From assembly GCA_041660565.1 (NCBI GenBank), contig JBAZWC010000002.1, forward strand, positions 217,836-281,835: a DNA stretch of 64,000 nt. The letters run 5' to 3'. Position numbers and translations under genes: made by a program. Below, piece after piece: positions 10,963 through 62,090 of the stretch. Position 1 is the stretch's first letter. Every line of letters starts with the position of its first letter. Source of the DNA: Patescibacteria group bacterium (GTDB lineage Bacteria > Patescibacteriota > UBA1384 > CAJBMM01). The notes under the pieces are model-generated. The model did no database searches. It was not told the DNA's origin and was given only the letters and a program-made list of their open reading frames with translations.

Positions 10963-10988
10963 ATAATTGAATTACGATGAGCGTCGTA

Positions 10989-11016: not shown

Positions 11017-11082
11017 GTATCTAAAAAAGAACCGCCCAGCGACTACAAGAGTCGGGGCGGTCGGTCGAGGTAATCCGCGCGG

Positions 11083-11421: not shown

Positions 11422-11451
11422 CCCGAAGCGAGATAGTTTTATAGTACAGTA

Positions 11452-36594: not shown

Positions 36595-36732
36595 GGCGTC
36601 ACGTGGACGCCGACACAAAACGGCTCGGATGCAGTGCATTCCGAGCCGTTATTCATTTTATAGTCGAATTGGCTTGCCATTCCGAAGCCTTCTTGACCTT
36701 CCGTAGCTTTGGCGAAGGAGGTGGCGAAGGAT

Positions 36733-36807
36733 GGCTGGGGAGGAAGGATTCGAACCTTCGATCTTCTGCTCCAGAGGCAGACGCCGTACCGCTTGGCCAC
36801 TCCCCAA
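36733..36807 (-). tRNA. tRNA-Gln (anticodon CTG), CCA encoded
   Basis: Reverse complement: UGGGGAG-UG-GCCAAGCGGUA...UCUGC-CUCUGGA-GCAGA...GGUUCGAAUCC...CUCCCCA-G-CCA. Cloverleaf with a 7-bp acceptor stem, anticodon CUG and a T-loop GGTTCGAATCC. Confidence 0.8.
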
Positions 36808-44542: not shown

Positions 44543-44866
44543 ATGAGGGGCATGGGACTGATTGTCGGACCAAATAGTTTTATCTCTTGGTGGGTGTTTG
44601 CCGTACCCAAACGCCTGTATCTTTGGGGTATGCGCGTTGTTGGCATGGTGGGCGACACTTTTGCCGTTAAGCAAATGGCCACTCACATTGGCGAGCCGAT
44701 TTTCCAAGATCCAACCTGGCAGGGGCGCTTAATAGGCATCTTTATACGCTTTTTTCGATTAATTGTTGGCTTGCTTCTTGAAGGCGTATTCTTTGTTTTG
44801 GTTTGCGCGGTGGTGATTGGTTGGTATTTATTGCCGTTCTTGGCAGTGTACGAGGTGATCAGATGA
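44543..44866 (+). CDS. small membrane protein, translationally coupled (ATGA) to the downstream Clp-like ATPase
   Basis: 107-aa ORF with two TM helices. Its stop overlaps the clpC start codon. The true start is uncertain. Confidence 0.3.
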   Translation: MRGMGLIVGPNSFISWWVFAVPKRLYLWGMRVVGMVGDTFAVKQMATHIGEPIFQDPTWQGRLIGIFIRFFRLIVGLLLEGVFFVLVCAVVIGWYLLPFLAVYEVIR

Positions 44867-47370
44867 CCGAAGCACCAAATCAATTGCAATTTAAACAAAC
44901 TGCCGCCGAATTTGTGAGCGGATGGAACAGTAGCCGCGCCTTGGCCGGTATTGGTCAGGTAATTGGATTCGGATCTTTGTTGGTTAGTATGCTGGCGTTG
45001 GCTTTGCAAACTTATCGTGGCTGGCTGGATGGGGAGATGCCCATTGTTTCATTGTTTGGCGGCTCTGCGTTGGCGCGGATGATGTGGGTTTTGATTCTAT
45101 TAGACATTGTGGCGGTCTATTTATTGGATGAAATTAGACGTCGAAAAACATATACCTCGAGGGACGATGTATACAACTTTTTAGATCAAAATAGCCGTTC
45201 TTTCCTTGCCCAAGCCTTATCTGTTGCCGACAAAAACAAACAAAAATTAACGGTAAATATGGCGTTGCATTTAATGTTGCAGTCCGGTTCCATGCGATAT
45301 TATTTGGCAAAATTAGAAATTGTTTCGGACTCGGTGTATGAGGCGGTCAAGCAACAAATACCGCTTGATTCGGTGCCTCAGTCTAAAAACGCTATGGAAA
45401 TGGATAACACTTTTCAGCAATATCTATTAGATAGCGCAAATCGTGCCGCGGCCAGAGGCGATAGTTCATTTGGCTTGCCGGACATCTTTTTAACGATTTT
45501 AGAAAAAGACGCCAACATTGCGCAGTTCTTTAGTAAAATTGACATTACGCCTAAGCGTTTTGCGGTGGTGATTAACGATTCGTCAACTCGCGATCATTTA
45601 CTGTCAACTTTTGATCAATTAAAGCAACAGCGCATGCACACCGGGCCGGTTAATCGCGCTTGGACATCTACCCCCACGCCGATGTTGAATCAATTTGGTC
45701 AAGATTTGACTGTTACCGCCTCGGCCGGTGCCATCCCGCTGGTTACAGTGCGACAAAAAGAGGTTGATGAAGCCATTCGAGTGTTGGCGCGTGCTACCAA
45801 AAACAGCTTGTTGTTGGTGGGCGAGCCGGGGGCGGGTAAAGCAACCGTGGTGGATCGCATTGCATTTCAAATGTTGTCCGGGTCCGTGCCCAAAGAGTTA
45901 CAAGATAAACGTTTAGTGCAGCTAGATGCGGCAGCGTTGCATGGATCGCCCGAAGGATTTTCGGTGGCGTTTGAGCAGCTGTTGGCTGAAACCGAGCGTT
46001 CGGGTAACGTCATCTTGTTTATTCCCAGTTTGCAAGATTTAGCTAGCGAGCAAACATCCGGAGTTGCGGTTGCTGAATTGTTATTGCCATTGCTTGATCG
46101 CGCTAGAATGCAGGTGATTGGCGCTACTACCATCAAGCAGTATCGCGAGGAAATTGAGCCCAATGTTAGCTTTGCCAAAGCGTTTGGGGTGGTGCAGATT
46201 AACGAAATGTCGCCGGATCAGGCTATGACCGTGCTAGAAGAAACGGCGTTAGAGCTTGAGGGCCAGCACCACGTTAAAATTTCGCTCAAAGCAATTGAAG
46301 CCGCGGTTACCTTATCCGCTAAATTTATTCACGACCGGGTGCTGCCCGAGAAGGCGATTGATATTTTGGATGAGGCATCAGCGATGGCCAGTGCTGCCAA
46401 AAAAGCCGAGGTAACCGAAGCTGACGTGCAGACAGTAATCAGCCAAAAAACCAATGTGCCAACCGAGGCGATAGGTCAGAATGAGCAATCAACCTTACTA
46501 GATTTGGAGAAGATTATTGGGTCCAGGGTGGTGGGTCAGGTTGAGGCGGTACAGGCGGTGTCTAAGGCGCTACGAAGGGCTAGGGCGGGCTTATCTGATA
46601 GTAATAGACCAATTGGCACCTTCTTGTTTGTGGGGCCAACTGGCGTGGGTAAGACCGAATTGGCCAAGGCGTTAGCTTCTAGTTATTTTAAGGGTGAGGA
46701 TACAATGGTGCGGTTGGATATGTCCGAATTTCAGTCGGCCGCTTCGTTAGTCGATTTAATTGGCCAGAATAATAAAGAAGGCGTGTTAACCGGACCGGTG
46801 CGCAATCGTCCGTTCTGTTTATTACTGCTAGATGAGTTTGAAAAAGCCTGTGATGAAGTGCGCAACTTATTCCTATCCATATTTGACGACGGGCGCATTA
46901 CCGATGGCAACGGCCACTTAATTGACTTTAAAAACTGTATAATTATTGCCACATCTAACGCCGGTTCACTCGAGATACAGCAGGCGATACAGTCAAACGT
47001 GCCTTACACCGACATTCAGAAAAAGCTTGGTTCAACTTTATTGCCGCAGATTTTTCGCCCCGAGCTACTCAACCGTTTTGACGGCATTATTGTGTTCAAA
47101 CCTCTCACCGCTGACGAAATTCTCAAGATTGCCAAATTACAAGTCGAAGCGGTAATTAAGCAGACAGAAGCCACGTCTGGGGTAAAACTGGCTGTTACCG
47201 ACGCGGTGATACAAAAACTAGCCACCGATGGTTTTGATCCTACGATGGGTGGGCGTCCGCTACGTCGAGTAGTTCAAGACGAGTTGGAATCGCCATTAGC
47301 CAACAAAATCATCGCCGGCAACGCCAAGCGTGGCGACCAAATTACGATTGATGTTGGAGACCTCGGGTAG
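44863..47370 (+). CDS. ClpC/ClpB-like double-AAA+ chaperone ATPase with an N-terminal two-TM membrane anchor
   Basis: Walker A GEPGAGKAT in NBD1 and GPTGVGKT in NBD2, plus a ClpB_D2-small C-terminus. About 90 aa with two hydrophobic helices precede the Clp N-domain. The ATG at 44863 has SD GAGGTG. Confidence 0.8.
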   Translation: MTEAPNQLQFKQTAAEFVSGWNSSRALAGIGQVIGFGSLLVSMLALALQTYRGWLDGEMPIVSLFGGSALARMMWVLILLDIVAVYLLDEIRRRKTYTSRDDVYNFLDQNSRSFLAQALSVADKNKQKLTVNMALHLMLQSGSMRYYLAKLEIVSDSVYEAVKQQIPLDSVPQSKNAMEMDNTFQQYLLDSANRAAARGDSSFGLPDIFLTILEKDANIAQFFSKIDITPKRFAVVINDSSTRDHLLSTFDQLKQQRMHTGPVNRAWTSTPTPMLNQFGQDLTVTASAGAIPLVTVRQKEVDEAIRVLARATKNSLLLVGEPGAGKATVVDRIAFQMLSGSVPKELQDKRLVQLDAAALHGSPEGFSVAFEQLLAETERSGNVILFIPSLQDLASEQTSGVAVAELLLPLLDRARMQVIGATTIKQYREEIEPNVSFAKAFGVVQINEMSPDQAMTVLEETALELEGQHHVKISLKAIEAAVTLSAKFIHDRVLPEKAIDILDEASAMASAAKKAEVTEADVQTVISQKTNVPTEAIGQNEQSTLLDLEKIIGSRVVGQVEAVQAVSKALRRARAGLSDSNRPIGTFLFVGPTGVGKTELAKALASSYFKGEDTMVRLDMSEFQSAASLVDLIGQNNKEGVLTGPVRNRPFCLLLLDEFEKACDEVRNLFLSIFDDGRITDGNGHLIDFKNCIIIATSNAGSLEIQQAIQSNVPYTDIQKKLGSTLLPQIFRPELLNRFDGIIVFKPLTADEILKIAKLQVEAVIKQTEATSGVKLAVTDAVIQKLATDGFDPTMGGRPLRRVVQDELESPLANKIIAGNAKRGDQITIDVGDLG

Positions 47371-47375
47371 GAAGC

Positions 47376-47470
47376 ACCAAAAACGGTTAGGGAGATTAGG
47401 GACTTTAGGGATTTTGGGAGACCATCGGTTATCCCAACCGCCCTAATCACCCTAAAACCCCTAACCGTCT
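47376..47470. repeat. family C, copy 4 (between convergent clpC-like and response regulator genes)
   Basis: CGGTTAGGGAGATTAGGGACTTTAGGGATTTTGGGAG ... TCCCAACCGCCCTAATCACCCTAAAACCCCTAACCG. Confidence 0.55.
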
Positions 47471-47483
47471 TTAGAATTTTGGC

Positions 47484-47870
47484 TTAGACGGCTGGTTTTT
47501 GTTCCGGCCCTAGATAGCGATTTAACACTTCTACTACCATGCCTGGCTCATACTCAGCTTTAACTAGATAATTTACAGCGCCAAGTGACTTAGCTTTCTC
47601 ACCGCTGGTATGTTCGGGCAAGTTGGTGGTCATAAATACCGGAATACTCTGTGTCTCTGGGTCTTCTTTTAGTATCTTTAACACATCAAAACCGTTAATC
47701 TTTGGCATAATAATATCTAGCAAAATGATGTCAGGCTTCTCATGTTTGGCAATTTCAATACCCGCAGTGCCAGATAGGGCAGTAAATACTTTGTACTGGC
47801 TTTGCTCCAGTTTAATCTTGTACATCTCAATAATGGCTGGTTCGTCATCGATGATTAGAATGCTGTGCAT
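47484..47870 (-). CDS. single-domain response regulator (CheY-like receiver)
   Basis: MHSILIIDDEP...DIILLDIIMPKINGFDVLKILKED...K. Confidence 0.85.
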   Translation of the reverse strand: MHSILIIDDEPAIIEMYKIKLEQSQYKVFTALSGTAGIEIAKHEKPDIILLDIIMPKINGFDVLKILKEDPETQSIPVFMTTNLPEHTSGEKAKSLGAVNYLVKAEYEPGMVVEVLNRYLGPEQKPAV

Positions 47871-47962
47871 AATATTTTCTCCTTCTCATTATCAATATAT
47901 GGACAATTTATTATAAAGTAAAGCCGGTTAAGACTTTAGGCGAATCAAGAAACTCAAGGGAT

Positions 47963-49243
47963 TTACCTTGGGAGTGAAAAGAAGAATGTTGATCCTTGAT
48001 TCTCTTTGCTCTCTACCCAAATTTTGCCTTGATGGCGGGTAATGATTACTTTGGCGATGTACAGACCAAGACCGGTTCCGCGAGTGTCCATAGATAGCAC
48101 ATTGCCGCTGCGGAAAAAGCGTTGGAACAATTTGGGAATATCGGCCGATGGTATACCAACCCCGTTATCACTAACCGAAACTACCACGTCTTTTGGCCTA
48201 GTCTCAATTTTAACCACAATTTTGCCTCTAGGATTGGTGTATTTGATGGCGTTATCAATTAAGTTCTGCACCACTTGAGTAATTTTTTCTCCATCCATAT
48301 TTAGAGTAGGAGTGCTACTAGAAGGTTTTTCAAAAACGATGTCAATTTTACGCTCAACCGCCAGTGTTTTCATCTCTTCCACCGCACTTTGTACTACTGC
48401 GGTAATGTTAGTCTGGGAAAAGTTAAGCACAATTTTGCGTTCTTCTAACCTGGAAATTGATAATAGCTCGGTAATGAGATTAACCATTTTTTTAGTAGAT
48501 TCCAATGTCTGATTTAGAAAATAATGCTGTTTTTCGTTAATCTTGCCTAAATCACCTTGCATCAACATGGATAAATGGCCGCGAATAATTGAAAGTGGGG
48601 TGAATAATTGGTGTGAGGTCATAGAAACAAACTCGTGTTCCATTGATTCAGCCTCGTGAATTTTGGTCAGATCTCGAATCAAAATCAAACTAGCGCCTCT
48701 GTGACCCGGGAATTTTTTAGCTTTGGTGCATCGTACGCCCACATCAATATGTTGACCGTCTTTGGTTAACATCTGCACTTCTTCGTAATGCGTTGGATTC
48801 TCCTCGGTTAAAAAACCAAGACCAAATGCAATACCGGTCTCTTTGTATTTCTCGGTGCGGAAGATATCGGGGCAGTAATGGCCAACCGCGTCAGCGGCGG
48901 TATATCCCGAAATATCTGTCATAGCCTCGTTAATGCGTAAAATGTTATTATTCTTATCTAAAACAATGATGCCATCGTGAGTTAGGGCAAAAAAGGCCAT
49001 ATGGCGATCACGCTGAAATCTTAGTTCTCGGCTGTCTTCTTCTAGCTGTTTTTGATCGTTAACGCTGCCTTTGCCTGATTCTAAAGCCCGAATTGTCCAA
49101 TACGCCGCTAGCAATATTGCTAATACGGCGCTAAGCTTCTCTTCTAGCGAATAATCTTGCGCTATAATACCAAAATAGACGTAGGTAAGAGTTAGTATCC
49201 AAATTAATGCGTCAAACGCACTGCGAATTTGTCTAGGTGTCAT
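47963..49243 (-). CDS. sensor histidine kinase (membrane anchor + PAS + HisKA + HATPase_c)
   Basis: PAS (FFALTHDGIIVLDKNNNILRINEAMTDISGY), H-box MTSHQLFTP, and the N/G1/G2 boxes (NLIDNAIKYT, DNGVGIP, GTGLGLYIAK). Confidence 0.85.
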   Translation of the reverse strand: MTPRQIRSAFDALIWILTLTYVYFGIIAQDYSLEEKLSAVLAILLAAYWTIRALESGKGSVNDQKQLEEDSRELRFQRDRHMAFFALTHDGIIVLDKNNNILRINEAMTDISGYTAADAVGHYCPDIFRTEKYKETGIAFGLGFLTEENPTHYEEVQMLTKDGQHIDVGVRCTKAKKFPGHRGASLILIRDLTKIHEAESMEHEFVSMTSHQLFTPLSIIRGHLSMLMQGDLGKINEKQHYFLNQTLESTKKMVNLITELLSISRLEERKIVLNFSQTNITAVVQSAVEEMKTLAVERKIDIVFEKPSSSTPTLNMDGEKITQVVQNLIDNAIKYTNPRGKIVVKIETRPKDVVVSVSDNGVGIPSADIPKLFQRFFRSGNVLSMDTRGTGLGLYIAKVIITRHQGKIWVESKENQGSTFFFSLPR

Positions 49244-49299
49244 ATTTTTATTATAGGGTGGTAGCGTAGAAAAGTATAGGGACGTGATTCAATTCACCT

Positions 49300-50088
49300 T
49301 TGCTAAAGATTCTGGTACGATTAATAGGTAATATTTGGAGAAGGATGGGGCAGTTTTTCAACGTGCTATTGTGGGAATTCTACGGAATCGGATACGACGC
49401 TATTTCGGTATCTTTACCTCATCGATACCTGCGACAAGAAGTAATTAAATTGATTGATGCTCAGGGTCGCGTCCATTCCGTAATGGATGTAGGGTGTGGG
49501 ACGGGCACTCTTTTACTTGAACTTTCCTCGCATCATTCTGAGATCAAGCTATCGGGGATTGATTTTTCATGGGTGATGCTTACTCTGGCTCGGATCAAAA
49601 AATTTTTGTGGAACAGAAAAATAACATTCTCTCGATTATCAATTAGCGAATTAGATCAAGTATCAAATGAGAGTGCTAACGTTGTTGTTTCGGTTAACGC
49701 AATTTTCGCCACAAATGACCCAGCCCCCGTTTTAACACAGATTAATCGAATATTAACCACAAACGGCAGGTTGGTTTTAGTTACCCCGTCTGATAACTTT
49801 AGTTTTGGTAGAATGTTGAAATTGCATCGACAAATTTTTAGAAAACTCACCGTTATTCAAAAAATTGCACTCAGTTTGTTCACAATTTTAACAATACCGC
49901 TATGGATCATTGTTTGCGTTGCCAACGTGATTATTGATGTGTTAGCGACAAGGGGACATTACCAGTTTGGCAAGTTAGACGACGTTGTTAACGTGGTGTC
50001 TAACGCTGGTTTTAAGATTATTTCTCAAACTGCTTTTCTTGATGGCCAAGAGCTAACAGTTGTAGCACAAAAGATGGGTGCAGTATGA
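49300..50088 (+). CDS. class I SAM-dependent methyltransferase
   Basis: Motif I VMDVGCGTGTLLLEL. First gene of a coupled three-gene operon (ATGA overlaps). Confidence 0.6.
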   Translation: MLKILVRLIGNIWRRMGQFFNVLLWEFYGIGYDAISVSLPHRYLRQEVIKLIDAQGRVHSVMDVGCGTGTLLLELSSHHSEIKLSGIDFSWVMLTLARIKKFLWNRKITFSRLSISELDQVSNESANVVVSVNAIFATNDPAPVLTQINRILTTNGRLVLVTPSDNFSFGRMLKLHRQIFRKLTVIQKIALSLFTILTIPLWIIVCVANVIIDVLATRGHYQFGKLDDVVNVVSNAGFKIISQTAFLDGQELTVVAQKMGAV

Positions 50089-50420
50089 TTACTGACATAT
50101 GGAACATGGCAATCGATCAATATCATGTTAATCCGATAATCTTTATTGTTATTTATGTCGTTACCTACATACCTTGCTGGTTGATTGTGTTTAAAATCGT
50201 CAAAATGTTTAAGCATAAAAATACCGAATCGTTGTATTTCTACATTTTGTTGGAATTGGCTTTGCTACTTATGCCGTATCTATATGTATTATTATTTGGG
50301 CGTAATTTACCCATTTGGGCCTATCTGCTCCTATTTGTACTAATTATTATGTCAGTTAACAGTACGTATCGGTATTGCGTTAAATTACTCAAAAATAAAA
50401 AAACAGGGAAACAAATATGA
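50085..50420 (+). CDS. small polytopic membrane protein
   Basis: Three TM helices. Its start and stop codons overlap both neighbours. Confidence 0.4.
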   Translation: MITDIWNMAIDQYHVNPIIFIVIYVVTYIPCWLIVFKIVKMFKHKNTESLYFYILLELALLLMPYLYVLLFGRNLPIWAYLLLFVLIIMSVNSTYRYCVKLLKNKKTGKQI

Positions 50421-51952
50421 GTGTTCAAGATATTATATTAAACCGGCCAAAGCTGGCTTGTTGGCTACTTTCCAAACTGCCCGCCGCGTATTGGTCAAAA
50501 GAGGGAGAAAAGCTGGCGTGTGATATTGCCAATCAAACTATCCGCGAAGTTAAAGCATATCAACAATTTTTATCAGACCACAGTAAAAGCATAAAATCAG
50601 TATCATCGATTAGAGATTTTGAAACCCTACCGGTAATGGATAAAGATAATTATATCGCTAAATACAAAACTGACGATACTTTGATACAGAACCATATATC
50701 GGAAAATTATGCCATTGAAAGAAGCTCTGGTCATAGCGGCGAAGCGCAATACTGGCCAAGAGACGCTGTAGTTGACAGTTTTTTTGCAAAATATATCGAA
50801 ATTGCCTTCAACCAGGCCTACAAAATTAGCCAAAAATCATCTTTGGTGGTTTTAACCTTTGCTTTGGGTACATGGACAACCGGCGAAAAAACAGCCGACG
50901 CATTAAGAAAACTCGCTGCTACGGGTAGATATCGGTTGTCAGTAATTACTCCGGGGGCAAATTTGGCTGAATCGGTCGAAATTTTACAGAGATTATCAAA
51001 TCAGTATGATCAGACAATCATTATTGGGTATCCGCCGTTTGTTAGATCGATTGTTGACGGTGCTATCGAAGCTGGGATAGATTTATCGAAGTTAAATATT
51101 AAAATTGGGCTTGGTGGTGAAGGTCATTCTTTGTTCTGGAAGAAAGATATATCAAAAAAACTTCATATTTCATCTAACGATTTGACGTCCATCTCAAGCG
51201 CATATGGAGCCGCCGATGTCGGTATAGGGATCGGTAGAGAATATCCGATTTCAATATTGATTAGGCAGTTGGCATCGGATAATAAAAAATTAGCCAATGA
51301 TTTATTCGGACAGTCTGATGTTCTGCCGGGTTTATATCAGTTCAACAACTCGTCATACGTTGAGGCGGTAAATGGAGAGTTGATTTTTACTGCCATGAAC
51401 GGTATCCCGGTGGTAAGATATAATATCCACGACCGCGGTGGGGTGATAAAATACAATCAGATGCTGAAGATATTGCTTGAGCATGGCATCGACATCAGAA
51501 AAATGCTTCAGGAACGCCATTATACATCGGCTGATGTATGGCGTTTGCCGTTCTTTTACGTATTTGGACGCACTGATGGTACGATTTCGTTCGGGGGCGC
51601 GAATATTTATCCAGAGAACATTGAAAACGCTTTGATTTCAAGTAATCAAAGTCAGCTGGTAAGCGCGTTCAAATTAGGTGTTGAAAAATCAAAATCAGGA
51701 AAAGAATGCCTAGTTGTTCACATCGAACTAAAGCAGAAAAGTTCGGTTGAATCTGAGGGTGAAAAAAAACGTCTCGCGACTACATTACATCAGGTGGTGG
51801 TGGAAAAACTAAAAGAGATCAATACTGATTATAGTGACGTATATCAGTTTGATCCCAAGTCTGCCGACATCGAAATTCGAGTATGCGATTATGGAACCAG
51901 CCCGTTTATGTTGGACAATAAAAAGATTAAAAGAAACTACCTATTAAAATAA
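50417..51952 (+). CDS. adenylate-forming enzyme of the PaaK/CapK/F390-synthetase-like (ANL) family
   Basis: The ERSSGHSGEAQYWPRD region resembles the SSGTTG-P adenylation motif of PaaK-like ligases. The length and C-terminal domain fit that family. Confidence 0.4.
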   Translation: MSVQDIILNRPKLACWLLSKLPAAYWSKEGEKLACDIANQTIREVKAYQQFLSDHSKSIKSVSSIRDFETLPVMDKDNYIAKYKTDDTLIQNHISENYAIERSSGHSGEAQYWPRDAVVDSFFAKYIEIAFNQAYKISQKSSLVVLTFALGTWTTGEKTADALRKLAATGRYRLSVITPGANLAESVEILQRLSNQYDQTIIIGYPPFVRSIVDGAIEAGIDLSKLNIKIGLGGEGHSLFWKKDISKKLHISSNDLTSISSAYGAADVGIGIGREYPISILIRQLASDNKKLANDLFGQSDVLPGLYQFNNSSYVEAVNGELIFTAMNGIPVVRYNIHDRGGVIKYNQMLKILLEHGIDIRKMLQERHYTSADVWRLPFFYVFGRTDGTISFGGANIYPENIENALISSNQSQLVSAFKLGVEKSKSGKECLVVHIELKQKSSVESEGEKKRLATTLHQVVVEKLKEINTDYSDVYQFDPKSADIEIRVCDYGTSPFMLDNKKIKRNYLLK

Positions 51953-51959
51953 GAGAAAT

Positions 51960-54071
51960 ATGTTACAGATTTTATTATTAACCATCGTTTCAGCGGTCAA
52001 CATATACCTTGCCTTTTTGGTTTGTCTAAAAGGTAAAGATAAAGTAATAAACTACTATTTTGGTGTGCTAGTAACTTTTATGGTGCTGTGGATGGTGACA
52101 AACTATCTATGTGACAATCCGATTATGCCGGCATGGGCTCTGTTTTGGAATAGATTGACCTTTGCTGTGGCCAGTGGATTAATTATGTCTTTCTTCCTTT
52201 TCTCTTGGAACTTTCCTCGAAATATCTTTGATTTTGGCCGTCATGTTACTACGATTGGGGTCATCTTGACTTTGGTTGTGGCCACGTTGTCGGTTTCAAC
52301 CAACACTATTATCAAATCGGTTGATTATTACAGCTGGGGAACAAACGCCGTTCCGGGTACGCTATATCCTTTATTTTTAATCCTTTTTGCGGTCTTTGTC
52401 GGCTTGGGTTTTTATAGTCAAATTGTAAAATTCATCCGATCTCGCGGTAAATCACGGTCTCAGCTAGCCTTTTTGTTTTTAGGATTACTACTCTCGGCGG
52501 TTGGTGTTAGTGTGTTTGGCATAATTATCCCAATCATCACCGGTTTGACGAACTATGGTAAGACTGGAGTGTACTCGCTGGTTATCTTCACCGCTCTAAC
52601 TTCGTACGCTATCATTGAGCATCATCTTTTCGATATTAGGTTTATTATCAAGCGCACCATTGTTTACTCGGTGCTGCTATCGTTTGTGTTAATGACCTAC
52701 GCGTTAGTTGTATTCTTTTCATCTCAAATAATCGGTGGAGACCTGTCGTTTGGTATCAAATCGTTCGCGCCAAACATTATCGCAGCGTTGTTAATAGCCG
52801 TTGGATTTGATCCGCTGAAACAATGGTTGTCCAAAGTAACTGACAAATATCTGTTCAAAGGTGAATACGATACACAAGAAGTGGCAAAAAAACTGGCCAA
52901 GCAGCTCTCAAATGTGGTCAGCTTAGATGAGGCATTGGACACTACAATGTCAATTGTGGCTGACGAAATGCGCATCAGTAGAGTGGCAACGATCATATTA
53001 CGTCGTATCGAAAAAGATACGGTGGTAAAGCGAGTTAAATCAACTGGTTATAGCAATGTGGTTAAATTGGAAGATAAGCCAATTGGATTTCTGGTTGACT
53101 ATTTGACTAAACATCCGGTAATGGTGGTTGTTGAAGACTTACGCGATGATCTTAGCAAGACCGCTATCAATCGCACTGTCATCAATGGAGTGATCTCGCA
53201 AATTGATCAATTTCAGGCGGTGGTGGCGCTGCCAATTCAGGTTAGTGGGGCGGTTATTGGTATTATGCTGGTTGGCGAAAAGTTGTCCGGTGACAGCTTT
53301 GATGAAGAAGACTTTGACACTTTAGAGCTGGTGGCGAATCAAACCGCGTTGTCAATTGAGAAAGCTCAATTTTATGAGGAAGATAAGTTAAAATCTGAAT
53401 TTATTTCTATCGCTTCTCATGAACTGCTCACCCCAACCGCAGCGATTGAAGGATATTTGTCGATGTTGCTGGACGAAAAGGCGGTGCCAACCAAAGAGCA
53501 GGCACATTTATATGCCACGCAGGCGTATCAAAGTAGTCGTCGTTTGGCCGATTTAGTCAAAGATTTGCTTTCTATCTCTCGAATTGAGAGTGGTAGATTA
53601 AAGATTACGGCAGTACCGATGGATTTGGTGCCAAGCATTGAACAAGCAACATCGGAATTAGCTAATATCGCCAAGGAAAAAGGATTGAAGCTAACCTTTG
53701 TTAAGCCGGGTGCTGGTTTGCCAAAGGTAGTCGCAGATCCCGATCGGGTGTTACAGATCTGCGTGAATTTAATTAGTAACGCCATTAAATATTCAATGAA
53801 GGGTGAAATAAAAGTATCGGCTGTGCCTAAAAAAGATCATGTTTTAGTATCTGTGCAAGATAATGGCATTGGTATTTCAAAGACAGATCAACAGCATTTG
53901 TTTGAGAAATTTCATCGCATTGATAATGCTAAAACAAGCGGGATTATGGGAACAGGCTTGGGGTTGTACATCACCAAAAATTTGGTAACATTGCTTGGTG
54001 GTGAGATGAAAGTGGTAAGCGAACCGGACAAAGGTAGCGTGTTTAGCTTTACTCTACCAATGTCAAAATGA
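51960..54071 (+). CDS. membrane sensor histidine kinase (7TM receptor-like N-terminus + GAF + HisKA + HATPase_c)
   Basis: Seven N-terminal TM helices, a GAF-like region, H-box IASHELLTPTAAIEGY, NLISNAIKYS and GTGLGLYITK. Confidence 0.8.
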   Translation: MLQILLLTIVSAVNIYLAFLVCLKGKDKVINYYFGVLVTFMVLWMVTNYLCDNPIMPAWALFWNRLTFAVASGLIMSFFLFSWNFPRNIFDFGRHVTTIGVILTLVVATLSVSTNTIIKSVDYYSWGTNAVPGTLYPLFLILFAVFVGLGFYSQIVKFIRSRGKSRSQLAFLFLGLLLSAVGVSVFGIIIPIITGLTNYGKTGVYSLVIFTALTSYAIIEHHLFDIRFIIKRTIVYSVLLSFVLMTYALVVFFSSQIIGGDLSFGIKSFAPNIIAALLIAVGFDPLKQWLSKVTDKYLFKGEYDTQEVAKKLAKQLSNVVSLDEALDTTMSIVADEMRISRVATIILRRIEKDTVVKRVKSTGYSNVVKLEDKPIGFLVDYLTKHPVMVVVEDLRDDLSKTAINRTVINGVISQIDQFQAVVALPIQVSGAVIGIMLVGEKLSGDSFDEEDFDTLELVANQTALSIEKAQFYEEDKLKSEFISIASHELLTPTAAIEGYLSMLLDEKAVPTKEQAHLYATQAYQSSRRLADLVKDLLSISRIESGRLKITAVPMDLVPSIEQATSELANIAKEKGLKLTFVKPGAGLPKVVADPDRVLQICVNLISNAIKYSMKGEIKVSAVPKKDHVLVSVQDNGIGISKTDQQHLFEKFHRIDNAKTSGIMGTGLGLYITKNLVTLLGGEMKVVSEPDKGSVFSFTLPMSK

Positions 54072-54127
54072 AAAATGTGATAGTATATAGTTAGTCGGAA
54101 GCGACATGGTAATAAGCAGGAGGGAAA

Positions 54128-54520
54128 ATGTCTGAATTAAACGGTAAAACAGTGTTAGTGGTGGACGATGACGAGTCGTTGCGTCAGATGTACCGTTTGC
54201 GTCTAGAAGCGTCCGGATACGCCGTTGTAGAGGCAACCAATGGGGAAGAAGCGATGGCTAGAGCAGTAGATACCCAGCCAAGCTGTATTTTACTAGACAT
54301 TATGATGCCAAGAGTAAACGGCTTTGACGTGTTAGACATTCTTAAGACAACCGCATCAACTAAAAAAATTCCGGTGGTGGTATTGACTGCTTTAATGCAA
54401 GACGACGCTCGTAAGCGCGTACAAAACGCCGGTGCGGCGGCTTGTCTGGTTAAATCCGAAGTAGTACCGGCGCAAGTGGTAGCTACGATTGACGCCGTGT
54501 TAGCCAAACCAACAACATAA
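54128..54520 (+). CDS. single-domain response regulator (CheY-like)
   Basis: VLVVDDDES...ILLDIMMPRVNGFDVLDILK...K. Confidence 0.85.
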   Translation: MSELNGKTVLVVDDDESLRQMYRLRLEASGYAVVEATNGEEAMARAVDTQPSCILLDIMMPRVNGFDVLDILKTTASTKKIPVVVLTALMQDDARKRVQNAGAAACLVKSEVVPAQVVATIDAVLAKPTT

Positions 54521-54579
54521 CAATTATCCTTTTGACAGTGGGGGGTTAAGGGGTTTTGCAGAAGTAATAAGGAGAGTTT

Positions 54580-54957
54580 ATGTCAGTGATACTATTGGCC
54601 GATGACGATAAAACGTTGCGAGATATGTATCGAATACCTTTGACCAGAGCGGGACACGTAGTTCACGAGGCGATAGATGGGTTAGCGGTTATCGAAATTG
54701 TCAAAACTATTCATTTCGATCTAATTTTACTAGACATTATGATGCCAAAAATGAACGGCTTGGACGTTTTGAAACTATTGCGTTCAGATGATGCCACAAA
54801 GCATGTTCCAATAATTATTTTAACCGCGTTGGCACAAGATTTAAGCCAAACCAGCGCTAGTGAGATTAAGGCAGACCGATATTTTTCCAAAGCAGACACT
54901 ACGCCAAACCAGTTGGTGCAATGCGTTAGCGAGCTTTTAGCTCAAAAGCCGAATTAA
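54580..54957 (+). CDS. single-domain response regulator (CheY-like)
   Basis: ILLADDDKT...LILLDIMMPKMNGLDVLKLLR. Paralog of the preceding gene. Confidence 0.85.
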   Translation: MSVILLADDDKTLRDMYRIPLTRAGHVVHEAIDGLAVIEIVKTIHFDLILLDIMMPKMNGLDVLKLLRSDDATKHVPIIILTALAQDLSQTSASEIKADRYFSKADTTPNQLVQCVSELLAQKPN

Positions 54958-54975
54958 GTATTTATCTCAAATTTA

Positions 54976-55239
54976 TTATTGCCCGACGAACGGATTTTCA
55001 CGGCCGGAGGTGTTTGGCGTTAATTGTGCACTAACATCTATATGCAATCTGCCCGTAACCAACGCCATATTGGTGGTATCTAGTTTAGACGTGCTTACGC
55101 TTTCCACAACATCGGACGATAAATCTTCGGACTGTTTGGTCAACAAGCTGGTGTAATAAATACTGCCATTAATTAACAGCAAAGCGATGATCGCAATGAC
55201 AATTATTACCGCTTTACTTTGATTTTTAGCTTCTTCCAT
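54976..55239 (-). CDS. small single-TM protein at the end of the pilMNO operon (PilP-position)
   Basis: 87 aa with one TM helix. It lies 12 nt downstream of pilO. Confidence 0.3.
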   Translation of the reverse strand: MEEAKNQSKAVIIVIAIIALLLINGSIYYTSLLTKQSEDLSSDVVESVSTSKLDTTNMALVTGRLHIDVSAQLTPNTSGRENPFVGQ

Positions 55240-55251
55240 ATCGATTCCTAC

Positions 55252-55812
55252 TTACTTTACGTAATAAAAACTGAATTTAATATCAGCGGATAAATTATTG
55301 GCATCACTCTCGGTTGGAATAATGGTTACAGATGTAATTGTAAGAATTCTATCTAGAGTTTCGCTTTCGGTTAATAGAAGTTTGATGTTTGGGTACGTGC
55401 CATTTACGCTCATCGATCCGGTTAGTTCTTTGTAATAGCTACTGGTTGATGCGGTGGTAGCCGCGGTATTTTTGGTAGTGCTGGTTAGCGGGGATAAGTT
55501 AATATCATTTACTTTTAGTTGGTGGCTGTTGGCCAGAGTTTCAAGGGTAAGCAAAAGAGTGTCATAATCGGGCGTTTTCGGGATAGCTAGTGTAGTAATA
55601 TTTTGGGCCTGAGTAATGTCAGTCTGGCTTTTGTTAAGTTTTATTAGATCATTTAATTTATCTTGGCTTTGGATATACTGCTGATTTTTATTTTTTAATT
55701 CCGTGATACTGTTGTTAACTCCCGATACAAAAGGTTTGATACCAAAAACTGTGCCACCACCAAGAATGGCGATGTAGATGATGGTGATTAATACGACGCG
55801 ATAATTAATCAT
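55252..55812 (-). CDS. pilO: type IV pilus assembly protein PilO-like
   Basis: N-terminal TM helix, then a coiled coil and an alpha/beta domain. Its position after pilN with a 1-nt overlap supports the call. Confidence 0.55.
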   Translation of the reverse strand: MINYRVVLITIIYIAILGGGTVFGIKPFVSGVNNSITELKNKNQQYIQSQDKLNDLIKLNKSQTDITQAQNITTLAIPKTPDYDTLLLTLETLANSHQLKVNDINLSPLTSTTKNTAATTASTSSYYKELTGSMSVNGTYPNIKLLLTESETLDRILTITSVTIIPTESDANNLSADIKFSFYYVK

Positions 55813-56411
55813 TATTTCACCTTTGGTGTTTGGTAGCCGGCGTTTAGGGTGAAAGTGAATGGGGCGGTGGTGTCAACTGATGTGTCGGCGGTAATAGTGT
55901 AGGTAATCCCAGTAAACGCCGCGTTGTTCTCTAAGGCCCGTTTGAAATCAACAATACTTGATCGTTGTTTTGCTGTTCCGCCAATGGTAATTTGAACCGG
56001 AGCGGCAGTAACAGCCGGAGTCGCACTCTTTGTTGTGGTAGCAACTGTTTTATTTACCGTAATCGTTTTTATTATTACATCGCTGCCAATCACGGCCGAA
56101 ATCTGATCTAAGATTGTGTTAGGTTTGATCTGCTTGTCAAGAATAGTTTTGATTGCTTTGAGGCCGGTGTTTGCGCTTGAGACGTTTGATTCCAGATCTT
56201 TGTACACCAAGGTTTTATTTTCGATAGTTTCTATTTGATTATTGAAACTGTTAATTTTTTCAGCAATGGTAATTCGAACCGTGGTTAAAGCTACCACAAA
56301 CCCAGCTAAAATGACCAAAATGGCGAAAAATCCGATCGAAATATAGGTCATCAAATTTACTGATAATCTTTTCTGTTTCTGAGATTGTGGTAAAAGGTTA
56401 ATGTCGCTCAT
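55812..56411 (-). CDS. pilN: type IV pilus assembly protein PilN-like
   Basis: Short cytoplasmic N-terminus (SDINLLP) that would bind PilM, then a TM helix and a periplasmic-type domain. Confidence 0.55.
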   Translation of the reverse strand: MSDINLLPQSQKQKRLSVNLMTYISIGFFAILVILAGFVVALTTVRITIAEKINSFNNQIETIENKTLVYKDLESNVSSANTGLKAIKTILDKQIKPNTILDQISAVIGSDVIIKTITVNKTVATTTKSATPAVTAAPVQITIGGTAKQRSSIVDFKRALENNAAFTGITYTITADTSVDTTAPFTFTLNAGYQTPKVK

Positions 56412-56420
56412 TTTCTCACC

Positions 56421-57446
56421 TTAATATGGCCTCATACTTAATCCAAGCGATACCGCGTACTGTAAATTTACTTCAGTGGTGCCGGTAACCAGCGGCAAAC
56501 CGGGTTCGCACTGAATATGCATTGACCCGACAACGGCCGGAATAATACCAGGGATGGTTGACCCCTGCCCAACCAGAATTGCACGCTTAATTTTGTCGGC
56601 TTGATAGTCTCTGGTTTCGTGAAAACGGTTGGCAGAAACTGCTTCTTGAACAATTGGGGCAACGGCACTGGAAACTACACTGTCAATTGAACTGCTTTTA
56701 TGATTGGATAAATAGTCCCTAACCTCGTTTTCAGGTTGGTTCAGTTTTTCACCAATGGTTTTTAGTAATTGCGCTTCGCCGATGTTTAAGGAGGTGGTTA
56801 ACCACACGTTGCCGTGGTCCGAAATAGTCATACGGGTAGATTCAGATCCGATCTCAATAATCTGAATCGCGTCGGTACTACCGGCGGGTAGTAGCGATCG
56901 GGTGATTGCGGTAGATTTTGTTTCCAAAGCCGATAGCTCAAACCCAGCCTGGTTGGTTATGTCTATCAAGCTGTCAACCATCTGTTTGGGAGCGGCAAAT
57001 ATGGCCACATCAATTTGTTGTTTGTCTGGATGCAACGCCAGTGGGGTGTAATCAATATACATTTCGTCAATTGGCATCGGAATAAACTGGCTGGTTTCAA
57101 ACGGGATTGCTTTTTGGAGCTCGTTTGGAGGCAAGTTTGGCATTTGGATTACTTTGGAAAAAATGTAAATCTCGGGTAACGCGGCCACCAGTGTTTTGGC
57201 GGTAATGCGGTGCGGGGTGGCGTTTTGCAAGGCAGATTTAATTGTTTCAATTAGTGCGTCCGGATTGGCAATAGTGCCTTTTTCAAGCGTTTTTTTAGGT
57301 AGTTCGGCGATACCTAAACTGACCAGGCGAGAATGTTGCCTTGGTCGTTTTAGTTGAGCTACTCTAACCGAGTGTTGCCCAATGTCTAAGCCGACTACTT
57401 CGGTTCGTAATCCTAAGAACGATGATAAACTCAAATACCCCTCCAT
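56421..57446 (-). CDS. pilM: type IV pilus assembly ATPase-like protein PilM (actin-like fold)
   Basis: VVGLDIGQHSVRVAQL N-terminal motif and the actin/FtsA-like architecture. Confidence 0.75.
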   Translation of the reverse strand: MEGYLSLSSFLGLRTEVVGLDIGQHSVRVAQLKRPRQHSRLVSLGIAELPKKTLEKGTIANPDALIETIKSALQNATPHRITAKTLVAALPEIYIFSKVIQMPNLPPNELQKAIPFETSQFIPMPIDEMYIDYTPLALHPDKQQIDVAIFAAPKQMVDSLIDITNQAGFELSALETKSTAITRSLLPAGSTDAIQIIEIGSESTRMTISDHGNVWLTTSLNIGEAQLLKTIGEKLNQPENEVRDYLSNHKSSSIDSVVSSAVAPIVQEAVSANRFHETRDYQADKIKRAILVGQGSTIPGIIPAVVGSMHIQCEPGLPLVTGTTEVNLQYAVSLGLSMRPY

Positions 57447-57497
57447 AAATAGTATAACAATAGAAATTACAAATCACAATTTTTAATTTTTAACCTT

Positions 57498-58877
57498 TTA
57501 TGGATTTAACTCTTCCCGCCAGGAGAGCAAGGCGTATTGGCCGGTAAGGGGGAAGCTGGGTGGGGGCGCATATAATAGATATTGGTCGTAGGTTTGAGTG
57601 GTGGTGCGGTATCCGGAAATCACGTTATTACCATTTACCCATGTCCAGTTCCAGTAGTTAAAACATCCAATAGATCCATAAACTGTGATGGCATTACGAA
57701 TATTGTATATACCCTGACCGCAATTATCGTTCCAGCAAATTGGACGATAAACTCGTCCGTTTTGCGCCAGCATAGCAGCGTTAATTTCTAATGTGTTTGG
57801 AGAAAGTGGCCCCACTTTGACATCTCGTTGCGCAGCTAAACCAAGGGCATCGGTACCATCTTTAGCGGTATAGACCAGGTTATTGGTGATGGTAATATCA
57901 CGATAGGTGGCCACTGCGGCCGGTAGGGTGGCCGCTGCAATAGTATATCGCCCATGAACTGTGCCACTAACCCAAACGTGATCCGCAGCGAATATGATGC
58001 CATTTGCCGGGGCGGGCTGGTTTACTAACGCGGTAGTGCTGAATTGGTTCAAAGTAGAGTTTGTAACGGTGGCTAAATTATAGGTGCCGTTGGCTAAAAA
58101 TTGAATGTAATACCCGAGCCCGGTCGATTTTCCAAGCGATTTTCCACCACTAGCCGCGCTGGTTTGTAACGAAAGAAAATCCGCCGTGATGTTTTGGAAG
58201 TTTATACGTGGTACCGGATAGATCCATTGATCGGTTGGTCCGCCGCTGCCCCAGACGCCGTTATGGGTGGTGTGACCATCGCCGCCAAACTGTGTAGCCG
58301 GGACATAACTAGCGTTTGCCGAGCTAACAATACCGTTGTTGGTTCCGTCGTAATGAATACCGGTGTTGGAATGAACCGGACCGTTGGTGTTTTCGCTATC
58401 ACCAAACCAAATTTCGTTATTGGTTACGACCGCATATTGACTAAAGGATGGTATACCTAAAACCGCTTTGACCGTTCTAGTGGTGGATGATCCGTTTAGC
58501 GTTCCGGTGGATTCGACAGTAGTAACTGTGCTTCCGTTTACCGGTGGGGTAATTAATAACGAATACGATCCAATGTTTTTACCGGTATTGTCTATGTACT
58601 GATGGACATAGGGGCCGTAAGGGGCACCACCCTGTGGTGCGCCATTGCCATCGGTGTAGTCGGCGTTATTGTGAGACAAATGCCACAGATAGTAACTCAC
58701 CCCGGCCTCAGAGATCCCTAGTGCGTCAATTTTATTCTGGCTGGTTTTGCTACTTTTACGTTGCATTATTGCAACTTCAACCAGGGCTACACTTAGGGTA
58801 ATAAATGCAGCACATAGGATCAAGATGATTGGGAGATAGAACGATTTGCGTTTGGATATTACTTTTTTGTTCATCAT
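57498..58877 (-). CDS. PilX-like pilus-associated protein with an N-terminal TM anchor
   Basis: The N-terminus KRKSFYLPIILILCAAFITLSVALVEVAIMQ resembles the PilX N-terminal domain. A large Thr/Asn/Gly-rich beta-rich exodomain follows. Confidence 0.35.
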   Translation of the reverse strand: MMNKKVISKRKSFYLPIILILCAAFITLSVALVEVAIMQRKSSKTSQNKIDALGISEAGVSYYLWHLSHNNADYTDGNGAPQGGAPYGPYVHQYIDNTGKNIGSYSLLITPPVNGSTVTTVESTGTLNGSSTTRTVKAVLGIPSFSQYAVVTNNEIWFGDSENTNGPVHSNTGIHYDGTNNGIVSSANASYVPATQFGGDGHTTHNGVWGSGGPTDQWIYPVPRINFQNITADFLSLQTSAASGGKSLGKSTGLGYYIQFLANGTYNLATVTNSTLNQFSTTALVNQPAPANGIIFAADHVWVSGTVHGRYTIAAATLPAAVATYRDITITNNLVYTAKDGTDALGLAAQRDVKVGPLSPNTLEINAAMLAQNGRVYRPICWNDNCGQGIYNIRNAITVYGSIGCFNYWNWTWVNGNNVISGYRTTTQTYDQYLLYAPPPSFPLTGQYALLSWREELNP

Positions 58878-58902
58878 GATTCCAAATTTGTCTGATAAGT
58901 TT

Positions 58903-59475
58903 TTATAGATTTGTTTTAAGGTTGCGTAAGTTAACTTTTGTGCTTGAGGTGGTGGTGTAGGTTGAATTGTAGGTGGAAAAGATGGTTGACGATACCGTAA
59001 CTAAGTGTACCGCAGGTAATGAAATTGGTAAATTCAGTGTCCCCATTTCTGATTCGTATTGAAACAGAGGTGTGGCTGGGTTAGTAACAAAATGGGTGTT
59101 GATGGTTCTAGTAGTCGCGGTGCCGGGGTCATAAGTATAGGTGCTACCAGATGCCACTCCAATTATAGTGGAAAGAGTGATGTTTGCGCCGGTTTTGGTG
59201 ATGGTGACTTGTGTTGGAGTGGCGTCGGCAGGGGCAAAATAGGATAGCACGGTGATCTGTGAAGCATCTGCTGACACAACTTGATAAGTTCCACGAAGCG
59301 CATTGGCAATTCGTGTGGTTAATGTGTCTGCCTCAGTTTTGGTTAGCGAAAGATACTGTCCGCGATAGTAGAGCGTGTAGGTATTACGAACGAAAGCAAT
59401 TAAAATAGAGCCAATTATGGTCAAAATGGCTACCGTAACTAACAACTCGACTAAACTAAAAGATTTTGTTTTCAT
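58903..59475 (-). CDS. type IV pilin-like protein
   Basis: Class III leader MKTKS|FSLVELLVTVAILTIIGSIL, with Glu at +5 and an N-terminal hydrophobic helix. Confidence 0.55.
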   Translation of the reverse strand: MKTKSFSLVELLVTVAILTIIGSILIAFVRNTYTLYYRGQYLSLTKTEADTLTTRIANALRGTYQVVSADASQITVLSYFAPADATPTQVTITKTGANITLSTIIGVASGSTYTYDPGTATTRTINTHFVTNPATPLFQYESEMGTLNLPISLPAVHLVTVSSTIFSTYNSTYTTTSSTKVNLRNLKTNL

Positions 59476-60821: not shown

Positions 60822-60868
60822 TTCCCAATTGGTCAAATTGGTCCAATTGGATAAATTGGATTTTGTAT

Positions 60869-62089: not shown

Positions 62090-62090
62090 C

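Follow-up and report, generated by a model that had tools for sequence, protein, structure and literature searches.

A PaaK-fold ligase cassette, a HisKA_7TM sensor kinase and receiver-only regulators in a signalling island beside the type IV pilus operon of a Patescibacteria group bacterium

Results

Gene content of the signalling island

We analysed a signalling island at positions 47484-54957 of a 64-kb stretch of DNA (the window) from the metagenome-assembled genome (MAG) of an uncultivated Patescibacteria group bacterium (contig JBAZWC010000002.1 of assembly GCA_041660565.1). As shown in Table 1, the list of open reading frames (ORFs) and searches against Pfam and NCBIfam place eight genes in the island: two sensor kinases (HK1 and HK2), three receiver-only response regulators (RR1, RR2 and RR3), and a coupled set of a methyltransferase (MTase), a small protein with three transmembrane helices (3-TM protein) and a ligase. 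A preliminary description of this DNA had named the same genes at the same positions, and it had also placed type IV pilus genes directly beside them; a pilB-pilC-pilin-pilMNO operon indeed abuts the island tail to tail. The remaining ~56 kb of the window contains no two-component genes beyond the island.

Table 1. Positions of the island genes, the adjoining pilus operon and other features of the window
Feature	Position	Strand	Domains and matches
RR1, receiver only, 128 aa	47484-47870	-	Pfam Response_reg E=5e-23; other domains none
HK1, 426 aa	47963-49243	-	two N-terminal transmembrane helices, PAS, HisKA, HATPase_c (Pfam)
Class-I S-adenosylmethionine (SAM) MTase, 247 aa from ATG	49345-50088 (ORF opens at TTG 49300)	+	Pfam
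Small 3-TM membrane protein, 111 aa	50085-50420	+	
PaaK-fold adenylate-forming ligase (putative), 511 aa	50417-51952	+	
HK2, 703 aa	51960-54071	+	HisKA_7TM, GAF, HisKA, HATPase_c (Pfam)
RR2, receiver only, 130 aa	54128-54520	+	Pfam E=9e-23
RR3, receiver only, 125 aa, last gene of operon	54580-54957	+	Pfam E=2e-22
Type IV pilus operon	54976-63764	-	T2SSE+MshEN, T2SSF, N_methyl, PilM_2, PilN, PilO (Pfam)
87-aa transmembrane protein	54976-55239	-	
pilO	55252-55812	-	
pilN	55812-56411	-	
pilM	56421-57446	-	
459-aa protein, function not assigned	between pilin-like gene and pilM	-	
Pilin-like gene	58903-59475	-	
454-aa protein	between pilC and pilin-like gene	-	CarboxypepD_reg
pilC	60869-62089	-	
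pilB	62091-63764	-	MshEN
tRNA-Gln	36732-36806		
Sigma-70-family gene	36916-38484	-	regions 2, 3 and 4 in the first ~250 aa
ClpB-like double-AAA+ ATPase, 855 aa, TTG start	44803-47370	+	~300 N-terminal residues without domain match

HK1 is transcribed divergently from the MTase operon, and RR1 lies downstream of HK1. ATGA overlaps couple the MTase gene to the 3-TM gene (at 50085) and the 3-TM gene to the ligase gene (at 50417), and both overlaps, already reported in the preliminary description, are real. The tight spacing between ligase and kinase also stands, but the gap from the ligase stop to the HK2 ATG is 7 nt and not 8 nt. The most likely start of the MTase gene is ATG 49345, and TTG 49300 is less favoured, because the Shine-Dalgarno sequence GGAGAAGG precedes the ATG and the homologues are 241-245 aa long. 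At the other end of the island, the convergent stops of RR3 and of the gene for the 87-aa pilus protein are 18 nt apart (54958-54975); this gap contains no terminator-like hairpin and, in a consensus scan, no terminator- or promoter-like site, and the transcripts of the two operons may overlap. An assignment of this DNA to Saccharibacteria could not be verified, and the nearest named species representative is Candidatus Berkelbacteria (L010), with identical gene order.

Kinases and regulators of the island

Pfam searches identify HisKA and HATPase_c domains in both HK1 (E=3e-12 and E=4e-32) and HK2 (E=4e-14 and E=9e-29), and the H box (SHQLFTP in HK1, SHELLTP in HK2) and the N, G1, F and G2 boxes are readable in both translations. 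An assignment of HK1 to PhoR and the Pho system was rejected: none of its best NCBIfam matches (PnpS, PhoR and WalK) reaches the cut-off, and RR1 lacks a DNA-binding domain.

HK2 consists of a HisKA_7TM domain (residues ~1-225), two more helices (226-300), a GAF domain (~305-469), and then HisKA and HATPase_c. The HisKA_7TM match (PF16927) covers residues 7-226 with 39.6 bits, against a gathering cut-off of 28.6. An AlphaFold2 (AF2) model of residues 1-470 (pLDDT 83.6) shows seven transmembrane helices, the fourth of which is followed by a short beta hairpin. A Foldseek search with the N-terminal model returns GAF domains and weak matches to class-A GPCR bundles (E ~1e-3, TM-score 0.38-0.5); we take the latter as a common seven-helix topology and reject homology to class-A GPCRs. 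NCBIfam searches with the sensor N-termini find no CqsS- or PrsK-type family and only sub-threshold matches to LIC10906 and MAB_1171c.

RR1, RR2 and RR3 are all receiver-only proteins, in agreement with the earlier statement that no regulator of the island has a DNA-binding output domain. They keep the acidic pocket, the phospho-acceptor Asp, the Thr and the Lys in the motifs DD(D/E), LLDI(M/I)MP, (L/T)T(A/N) and (V/S)K(A/S). RR1 is 39-40% identical to RR2 and RR3, and its orthologues adjoin HK1 in L001, L010, L168 and L090. An RR2 orthologue lies directly after HK2 in L001, L010, L168, L169, L170 and L090 (E=1e-55 to 1e-62), and the RR3 orthologues form a separate group in the same loci. The best PDB matches of RR2 and RR3 are generic receivers (RR468, CheY, RpaA, PhoB and YycF receiver domains). 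With sizes of 125-130 aa, which are kept in the orthologues, none of the three is a PilS/PilR-type regulator with sigma-54 AAA+ and DNA-binding domains. By their predicted domains, the kinases and receivers of the island are HisKA-type two-component components.

The preliminary description had called the island chemosensory-like. In a Che or Pil-Chp pathway, the CheY-like proteins would be fed by a chemotaxis-style kinase, and the MTase would act as CheR. The single-domain receivers are CheY-like at the domain level, and the CheY-like proteins PilG and PilH control pili in Pseudomonas. The domain content of the island contradicts this explanation: the kinases are HisKA-type and not CheA-type, the matches of the MTase are UbiE-like and Methyltransf_11/25/31 models, and Pfam scans of the island and flank ORFs find no CheA, CheW, CheB, CheR or methyl-accepting chemotaxis protein (MCP) domains. 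We regard a Che or Pil-Chp pathway as extremely improbable.

The ligase, the MTase and the 3-TM protein

The ligase had been described as PaaK-like, and sequence and structure searches show that this holds at the fold level but not at the sequence level. Its scores are far below the equivalog cut-offs of the NCBIfam PaaK models NF041878 (44.4 bits, cut-off 700) and TIGR02155 (41.0 bits, cut-off 646.3), and Pfam gives a weak AMP-binding_C_2 match alone, with no match to PF00501 (AMP-binding). An AF2 model built on 35 homologues (pLDDT 86.5) has PaaK1 (2y27) as its best Foldseek match, with E=8e-22, a target-normalised TM-score of 0.77 and 15% identity. Further matches are BT_0428, AjiA1, ClxA, HCL and PaaK-family AMP ligases; 6siw, AjiA1 and ClxA are members of this family that form amides or esters. 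A profile search matches PaaK structures at E=8e-16. We place the ligase in the PaaK-fold/ANL adenylate-forming superfamily.

Across the 35 homologues, the ligase has the motifs SSGxSG (103-108), YGAAD (263-267), RYxIxD (334-339), GR (384-385) and K505, which we take to be the ANL A3 P-loop, A5, the A7 Asp, the A8 hinge GRxD and the A10 Lys. In the P-loop region, S103 is invariant and S104, G105 and G108 are at least 90% conserved; Y263, G264, D267, R334, Y335, D339, G384, R385 and K505 are also conserved. Because these adenylation motifs are invariant or nearly so, the ligase is expected to be an active adenylate-forming enzyme.

The MTase matches the Pfam families Methyltransf_31/25/11/23/12 with E values of 1e-12 to 1e-15 and also UbiE/BioC-like NCBIfam models; no CheR model is among its listed matches (all 12 for Pfam, the best 25 of 36 for NCBIfam). 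Its orthologues lie upstream of the ligase gene in 10 loci. The 3-TM protein is conserved in L001, L010 and L003 and has no Pfam, NCBIfam or PADLOC match; a divergent SemiSWEET was rejected as its identity (hhalign probability 0.2%). The PADLOC models likewise assign no defence system here, the similarity being limited to generic MTase, HATPase and REC matches.

A ligase clade adjoins HisKA_7TM sensors across phyla

Gene neighbourhoods were compared in 89 loci, drawn from the contexts of metagenome homologues and from a genome scan in which each species was represented once. These loci were searched with the proteins of the window and with a hidden Markov model (HMM) of the 7TM region, and HK2 homologues led to further loci. 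A protein with a HisKA_7TM domain adjoins the ligase gene in 20/20 distinct loci of the close ligase clade (35-54% identity; window, L001-L003, L007, L009-L019, L168 and L170-L172). The named organisms among these loci are Patescibacteria, Coriobacteriia/Actinomycetota and a MAG of Eubacteriales. In contrast, the 7TM HMM finds no such sensor in any of 72 loci of the sister ligase clade (31-36% identity), which come from cyanobacteria, Chloroflexota, Chthonomonadaceae and Dongia, among others.

The outputs of the ligase-linked sensors differ, being a HisKA/HATPase kinase, GAF with HD-GYP, or PAS-GAF-SpoIIE/PP2C, and the HD-GYP outputs are bona fide, with HDxGK, HHE and GYP motifs present. The 20/20 adjacency persists across the three outputs, and therefore the ligase is tied to the sensor domain and not to one output. 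The ligase also has a recurrent neighbour, usually just upstream, which is a class-I MTase in 10 loci and a ThiF-family adenylyltransferase in 8. This adjacency strongly backs the idea that sensing is tied to a small-molecule step, and it answers the concern that the gene is a housekeeping CoA ligase of scattered context.

Several loci have further arrangements around the ligase or the sensor. L014 encodes a second HisKA_7TM protein, stand-alone and 382 aa long, on the opposite side of the ligase cassette (7641-8789, minus strand). In L007 the MTase-ligase pair lies between two 7TM-GAF-HD-GYP sensors (4420-6915 and 9822-12296), of which one is encoded by two genes, one for the 7TM part and one for GAF-HD. 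Several loci also have a radical-SAM gene at most a few kb from the sensor (L109 4829-7086, L007 1225-3369, L002 3704-4774 and L003 3431-4414), possibly for additional tailoring; a distinct GNAT gene comes after it in L109, and the L007 version is a fusion with B12-binding and GNAT-like domains. In Trichormus variabilis (L005/L006, 4008-7872), a sister-clade ligase adjoins two Ser/Thr protein kinase genes and not a 7TM sensor, which could be a coincidence or another signalling association.

The 7TM domain diverges along with the cassette

We compared 12 distinct Patescibacteria loci with an HK2-type kinase, which were found via pilM, the ligase and the N-terminal 470 residues of HK2. The HK2 orthologues of the 11 further loci are 34-52% identical over residues 1-470, and the enzyme cassettes vary. 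A methyltransferase-membrane protein-ligase (MT-MEM-LIG) cassette is present in the window, L001 and L010, and an MT-LIG cassette in L168. The other ligase cassettes are SemiSWEET-ThiF-LIG in L002, MEM-LIG-SemiSWEET-ThiF in L003, LIG-ThiF-Acg-type flavin mononucleotide (FMN) oxidoreductase in L170, and MFS-ThiF-LIG in L171 and L172. Three loci have other enzymes: a macrolide-type (MGT) glycosyltransferase in L090, whose gene overlaps the kinase start by ATGA, a pyruvoyl arginine decarboxylase (ArgDC) with a 183-aa protein in L169, and an alpha-oxoamine synthase (AONS/KBL/SPT/CqsA family) in L109. In L170, the ThiF-family protein (394 aa) and the following Acg-family FMN oxidoreductase (NF047509, 205 bits, cut-off 199; both genes within 2729-4938) look like a split Rv1355c-type fused protein, and both match that protein.

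Domain-by-domain comparison of HK2 with six close orthologues shows that the kinase core is 66-69% identical to that of the window, the GAF domain 51-62% and residues 226-300 61-77%. The identity of the 7TM domain (1-225) is 47-50% where the cassette is the same, 33% with the MT-LIG cassette, and 22-25% with the glycosyltransferase, ArgDC or LIG-ThiF-Acg cassettes; among the HK2 domains, only the 7TM domain diverges along with the cassette. L090 is the closest relative by pilM (63%), GAF and linker, yet has the most divergent 7TM domain.

The 7TM domain of the window scores 82 bits against the ligase-linked HD-GYP sensor of a Coriobacteriia MAG (L013) and 94 and 70 bits against those of unclassified metagenome contigs (L007b and L009), and it scores 112, 86 and 85 bits against distant ligase-bearing Patescibacteria (L002, L003 and L171). 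Its scores against close kinase orthologues with other cassettes are 49 (L169), 44 (L170), 39 (L090) and 36 bits (L109). By these sequence scores, 7TM similarity follows the ligase and not the kinase. The comparison suggests that the 7TM domain and the cassette are exchanged as a unit before a conserved GAF-kinase-regulator chassis, with an exchange junction predicted near HK2 residue 225, at the YAIIEHHLFDIR motif.

Conserved adjacency to the pilus operon

In 11 of the 12 Patescibacteria loci (window, L001, L010, L168, L002, L003, L170, L171, L090, L169 and L109), one or two receiver-only genes come after the gene of the HK2-type kinase, with convergent pilO-pilN-pilM next in line. This order is kept in at least five left-hand contexts, including HK1-RR1-ClpB, GreA with radical-SAM, sugar dehydrogenases, and DnaB with TyrRS. 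The link to pili proposed in the preliminary description is backed by this synteny in 11/12 loci, L172 being the one counter-example. The conserved adjacency supports a functional link of the island to pili, short of proof.

Two proteins of the pilus operon have features of their own. The 87-aa protein has one N-terminal transmembrane helix, a C-terminal ENPF motif and a weak YmgD match alone; its orthologues occupy the same position in L001, L010, L090, L168, L169 and L170, and it may be a miniature PilP-like component. At its N-terminus PilB has an MshEN domain (E=7e-19), of a type with known binding of cyclic di-GMP (c-di-GMP). This domain and the HD-GYP (c-di-GMP hydrolase) outputs of the non-Patescibacteria relatives may link the module thematically to c-di-GMP/pilus control.

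On the left of the island, the ClpB-like ATPase gene adjoins RR1, as it does in L001, L010, L168 and L090. Farther away, the segment 36000-38500 has 57% GC, against ~44% in the window, and may be acquired DNA; the sigma-70-family gene, whose product has a Pro/Thr/Ala-rich C-terminal extension of ~270 aa, adjoins the tRNA-Gln gene.

Discussion

A proposed function of the island

We tentatively favour a reading in which a swappable enzyme cassette and the 7TM sensor form the input to a conserved kinase-regulator chassis, whose probable role is the control of pili. The chassis would consist of the GAF-HisKA-HATPase part of HK2 with RR2 and RR3, anchored tail to tail at the pilMNO end, and in this sub-lineage it would also include the divergent PAS-kinase pair HK1/RR1, which could serve as a second, PAS-based input to the same receiver pool. 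The input module would be the HisKA_7TM domain of HK2 together with the enzyme cassette translated just ahead of it. For the chemistry, the product as ligand, the phosphotransfer and the pilus target, we infer the following steps. The ligase would activate a carboxylic acid as an acyl-adenylate and join the acid to an acceptor, and the MTase would tailor the ligase product, its place being taken by the ThiF-type adenylyltransferase in other lineages. The 3-TM protein would carry the substrate or product across the membrane, and the amphiphilic product would be read within the membrane by the cognate 7TM domain. HK2 would then autophosphorylate and phosphorylate RR2 and RR3. Because a DNA-binding output domain is absent, these receivers are expected to act through protein-protein contact, most plausibly on PilB, PilC or PilM. 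Amphiphilic or small-molecule products would also fit the enzymes of the alternative cassettes, namely a small-molecule glycosyltransferase, a decarboxylase and an enzyme that condenses acyl-CoA with amino acids.

A number of observations weigh against this reading. Concerning the pili, the island and the pilus operon are convergent and not co-transcribed, and in L172 the MFS-ThiF-ligase-kinase-RR genes are followed by dnaX and dnaB. No kinase or regulator lies near pilM in ~60 more distant pilM loci (23-28% identity), and the kinase-pilMNO pairing is therefore specific to one lineage. The PDB sequence search finds no specific affinity of RR2 or RR3 to PilG, PilH or known pilus regulators. Concerning the ligase and the sensor, the two genes are convergent, hence not co-transcribed, in several Actinomycetota loci. 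A mirror-tree test finds a significant but weak correlation of ligase and 7TM distances (Mantel r=0.32); relatedness confounds this test, and we do not rely on it. In L170 the 7TM domain has diverged from that of the window as far as in the non-ligase loci, although a ligase is present; the L170 ligase is itself divergent (481 aa), and its gene order is different. Furthermore, the trees are unsupported neighbour-joining trees, and the counts are not fully independent, many of the loci being MAG or metagenome contigs from organisms related to one another.

The points on convergence and L172 also speak for an explanation in which the neighbours have no functional link, and so does the lack of a kinase near most Patescibacteria pilM loci: the space between HK1 and HK2 would be an insertion hotspot for unrelated metabolic genes, the kinases and regulators would act on non-pilus targets through other protein partners, and the pilus adjacency would be inherited synteny. 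The highly variable cassette content fits this as well, and an uninformative consensus scan of 47300-55400, which gives 27 promoter-like sites (21±5 expected) and 11 terminator-like sites (7±2.5 expected), is counted on the same side. However, the ligase-7TM adjacency recurs in other phyla and with other outputs (20/20 versus 0/72), and only the 7TM domain co-varies with the cassette inside one protein, a pattern not produced by a hotspot for unrelated cargo. Start/stop overlaps couple the MT, MEM and ligase genes in the window and the cassette to the kinase in L090, the ligase and HK2 genes of the window are nearly contiguous, and pilMNO persists on the right across at least five left-hand contexts. 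Because of the cross-phylum association and the domain-specific co-variation, we disfavour a set of unlinked neighbours and consider it quite unlikely.

Another explanation keeps the same receiver-pilus output and changes the input. The 7TM domain, helped by the 3-TM protein, SemiSWEET or MFS, would act as a transceptor that imports an exogenous, possibly host-derived carboxylic acid; the ligase would trap the acid by adenylation/thioesterification, the MTase or ThiF enzyme would process it, and the sensor would report uptake or occupancy and not a self-made signal. Small transporter-like genes (3-TM, SemiSWEET and MFS) accompany the Patescibacteria cassettes, the ligase adjoins the 7TM domain whatever the output domain, and residues 1-470 of HK2 match the 'putative transporter' family MAB_1171c, but weakly (E=3e-4, with 20 bits against a cut-off of 100). 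Patescibacteria depend on host metabolites and are without most biosynthesis, and vectorial acylation, the joint action of a transporter and an acyl-CoA synthetase, is well established. On the other hand, the AF2 model is a compact helical bundle without evidence of a pore, and the glycosyltransferase, arginine decarboxylase and alpha-oxoamine synthase look like enzymes of synthesis or tailoring and less like enzymes of trapping. We judge import with metabolic trapping to be unlikely.

The strict ligase-7TM adjacency could also be explained by covalent modification, in which the ligase and the MTase or ThiF enzyme acylate, adenylylate or methylate the sensor or another protein such as pilin, as an adaptation or maturation step with a logic analogous to that of CheR/CheB on chemoreceptors. 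ThiF-type enzymes typically activate the C-termini of proteins or peptides, and LuxE-type ANL enzymes acylate proteins. The MTase of the island, however, is a generic small-molecule-type class-I enzyme and not CheR- or PrmA-like, the enzymes of the replacement cassettes act on small molecules, and next to the ThiF genes we noticed no gene for a carrier, a ubiquitin-like protein or a precursor peptide. We therefore hold covalent modification to be very unlikely.

Significance

The reading of a cassette and sensor input to a pilus-controlling chassis has a bolder form, about which we are rather doubtful: the cassette and 7TM domain would be interchangeable signal-maker and signal-reader modules, and each Patescibacteria lineage would have its own lipid-like molecule, read by the 7TM domain and switching type IV pili. 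If this is true, each lineage would make the molecule itself or convert it from host material, in the form of an acyl conjugate, an ester, a glycoside, an amino-ketone or an amine, and the whole would represent a previously undescribed chemical 'dialect' system governing the episymbiotic lifestyle via host attachment or motility. The ligase-7TM module would then be reused in other phyla for c-di-GMP (HD-GYP) or PP2C phosphatase signalling.

Among the organelles by which cultivated Patescibacteria interact with hosts, type IV pili are the best documented. The regulation of pilus extension and retraction in this group is a stated open question (PMC11623550). The locus analysed here supplies a candidate set of pilus regulators, in which a 7TM-GAF kinase and two receiver-only proteins are kept next to pilMNO, together with a testable proposal for the input of the kinase. 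Independent of pili, the ligase-7TM pairing and the domain-level swapping offer a route to de-orphan the HisKA_7TM domain; full-text searches found no ligand or partner of this domain, which is mentioned in only two papers, of the census or review kind.

Comparison with known systems

Known kinds of systems include two-component systems, synthase-receptor pairs and receiver-only regulators encoded near pili. In the searchable literature, we found no description of a dedicated pairing of a PaaK-fold ligase clade with HisKA_7TM sensors across phyla, or of the swapping of a cassette plus 7TM domain on a chassis next to the Patescibacteria pilus operon; as a comparative pattern, this is well supported. 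Nor did we find a link of PaaK-type ligases with HisKA_7TM sensors or of two-component systems with pili in Patescibacteria. For genomes of the candidate phyla radiation (CPR), Bernard et al. (2020; PMC7567580) reported CqsA, LuxI and PpyS homologues beside sensory kinases and proposed that such neighbours form complete, candidate quorum-sensing systems. That study also mentions RpfB and RpfF in CPR; it does not describe a PaaK-type ligase, a methyltransferase, pili or domain-level swapping, and a CoA ligase appears in it only as RpfB.

A quorum-sensing pair is an enzyme gene beside a membrane-sensor kinase with co-varying specificity, and the sequences of the present loci point to the same arrangement, with the ligase adjoining the sensor in 20/20 loci and the 7TM domain tracking the cassette. 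As in CqsA/CqsS of Vibrio and LqsA/LqsS of Legionella, an enzyme gene lies directly beside a kinase with a multi-helix membrane sensor, and L109 has an alpha-oxoamine synthase, a member of CqsA's family, in the cassette position, although this protein matches CqsA at E=1e-25 versus AONS/KBL at E=1e-67. The window differs in that its cassette consists of MTase, 3-TM protein and PaaK-fold ligase, with no CqsA, LuxI or PpyS homologue, and the listed Pfam and NCBIfam matches of its three genes include no model of the CqsA, LuxI, LuxM, RpfF or AfsA type. The sensor of HK2 also differs from CqsS, being HisKA_7TM followed by GAF, and the regulators here have no Hpt or LuxO-type continuation.

In the phcBSRQ operon of Ralstonia, the methyltransferase PhcB makes 3-hydroxy fatty-acid methyl esters, PhcS is the sensor kinase, and PhcR and PhcQ are the regulators. 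Compared by description only, the island is alike in that one operon encodes a SAM methyltransferase and a membrane sensor kinase along with two response regulators, and a neutral carboxylic-acid ester as signal would be common to both. The island differs by its added ANL ligase and small membrane protein and by its receiver-only regulators.

The rpf cluster of Xanthomonas encodes the acyl-CoA ligase RpfB, the synthase RpfF, the sensor kinase RpfC and the HD-GYP regulator RpfG. The present loci likewise bring together the genes of an adenylate-forming ligase and a membrane-embedded sensor, and the non-Patescibacteria relatives of the module have an HD-GYP output. However, RpfB is FadD-type (Pfam AMP-binding), whereas the ligase of the window has the PaaK fold and no PF00501 match, an RpfF-like enoyl-CoA hydratase is absent, and in the relatives HD-GYP is fused to the sensor and not to a receiver.

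The island resembles PilG and PilH of the Pil-Chp system in having receiver-only regulators beside pilus genes, for which contact with the motor and not transcription is expected; its kinase is HisKA-type and not the CheA-like ChpA, and it has no MCP or CheW. Finally, the ligase shares the two-domain fold and the ANL motifs with PaaK and the PaaK-family AMP ligases (2y27, 4r1l, 6siw, AjiA1 6wuq and ClxA 9s45), but it is ~15% identical to PaaK, is ~70-80 residues longer and lies outside any paa catabolic context, and its constant neighbour is a 7TM sensor.

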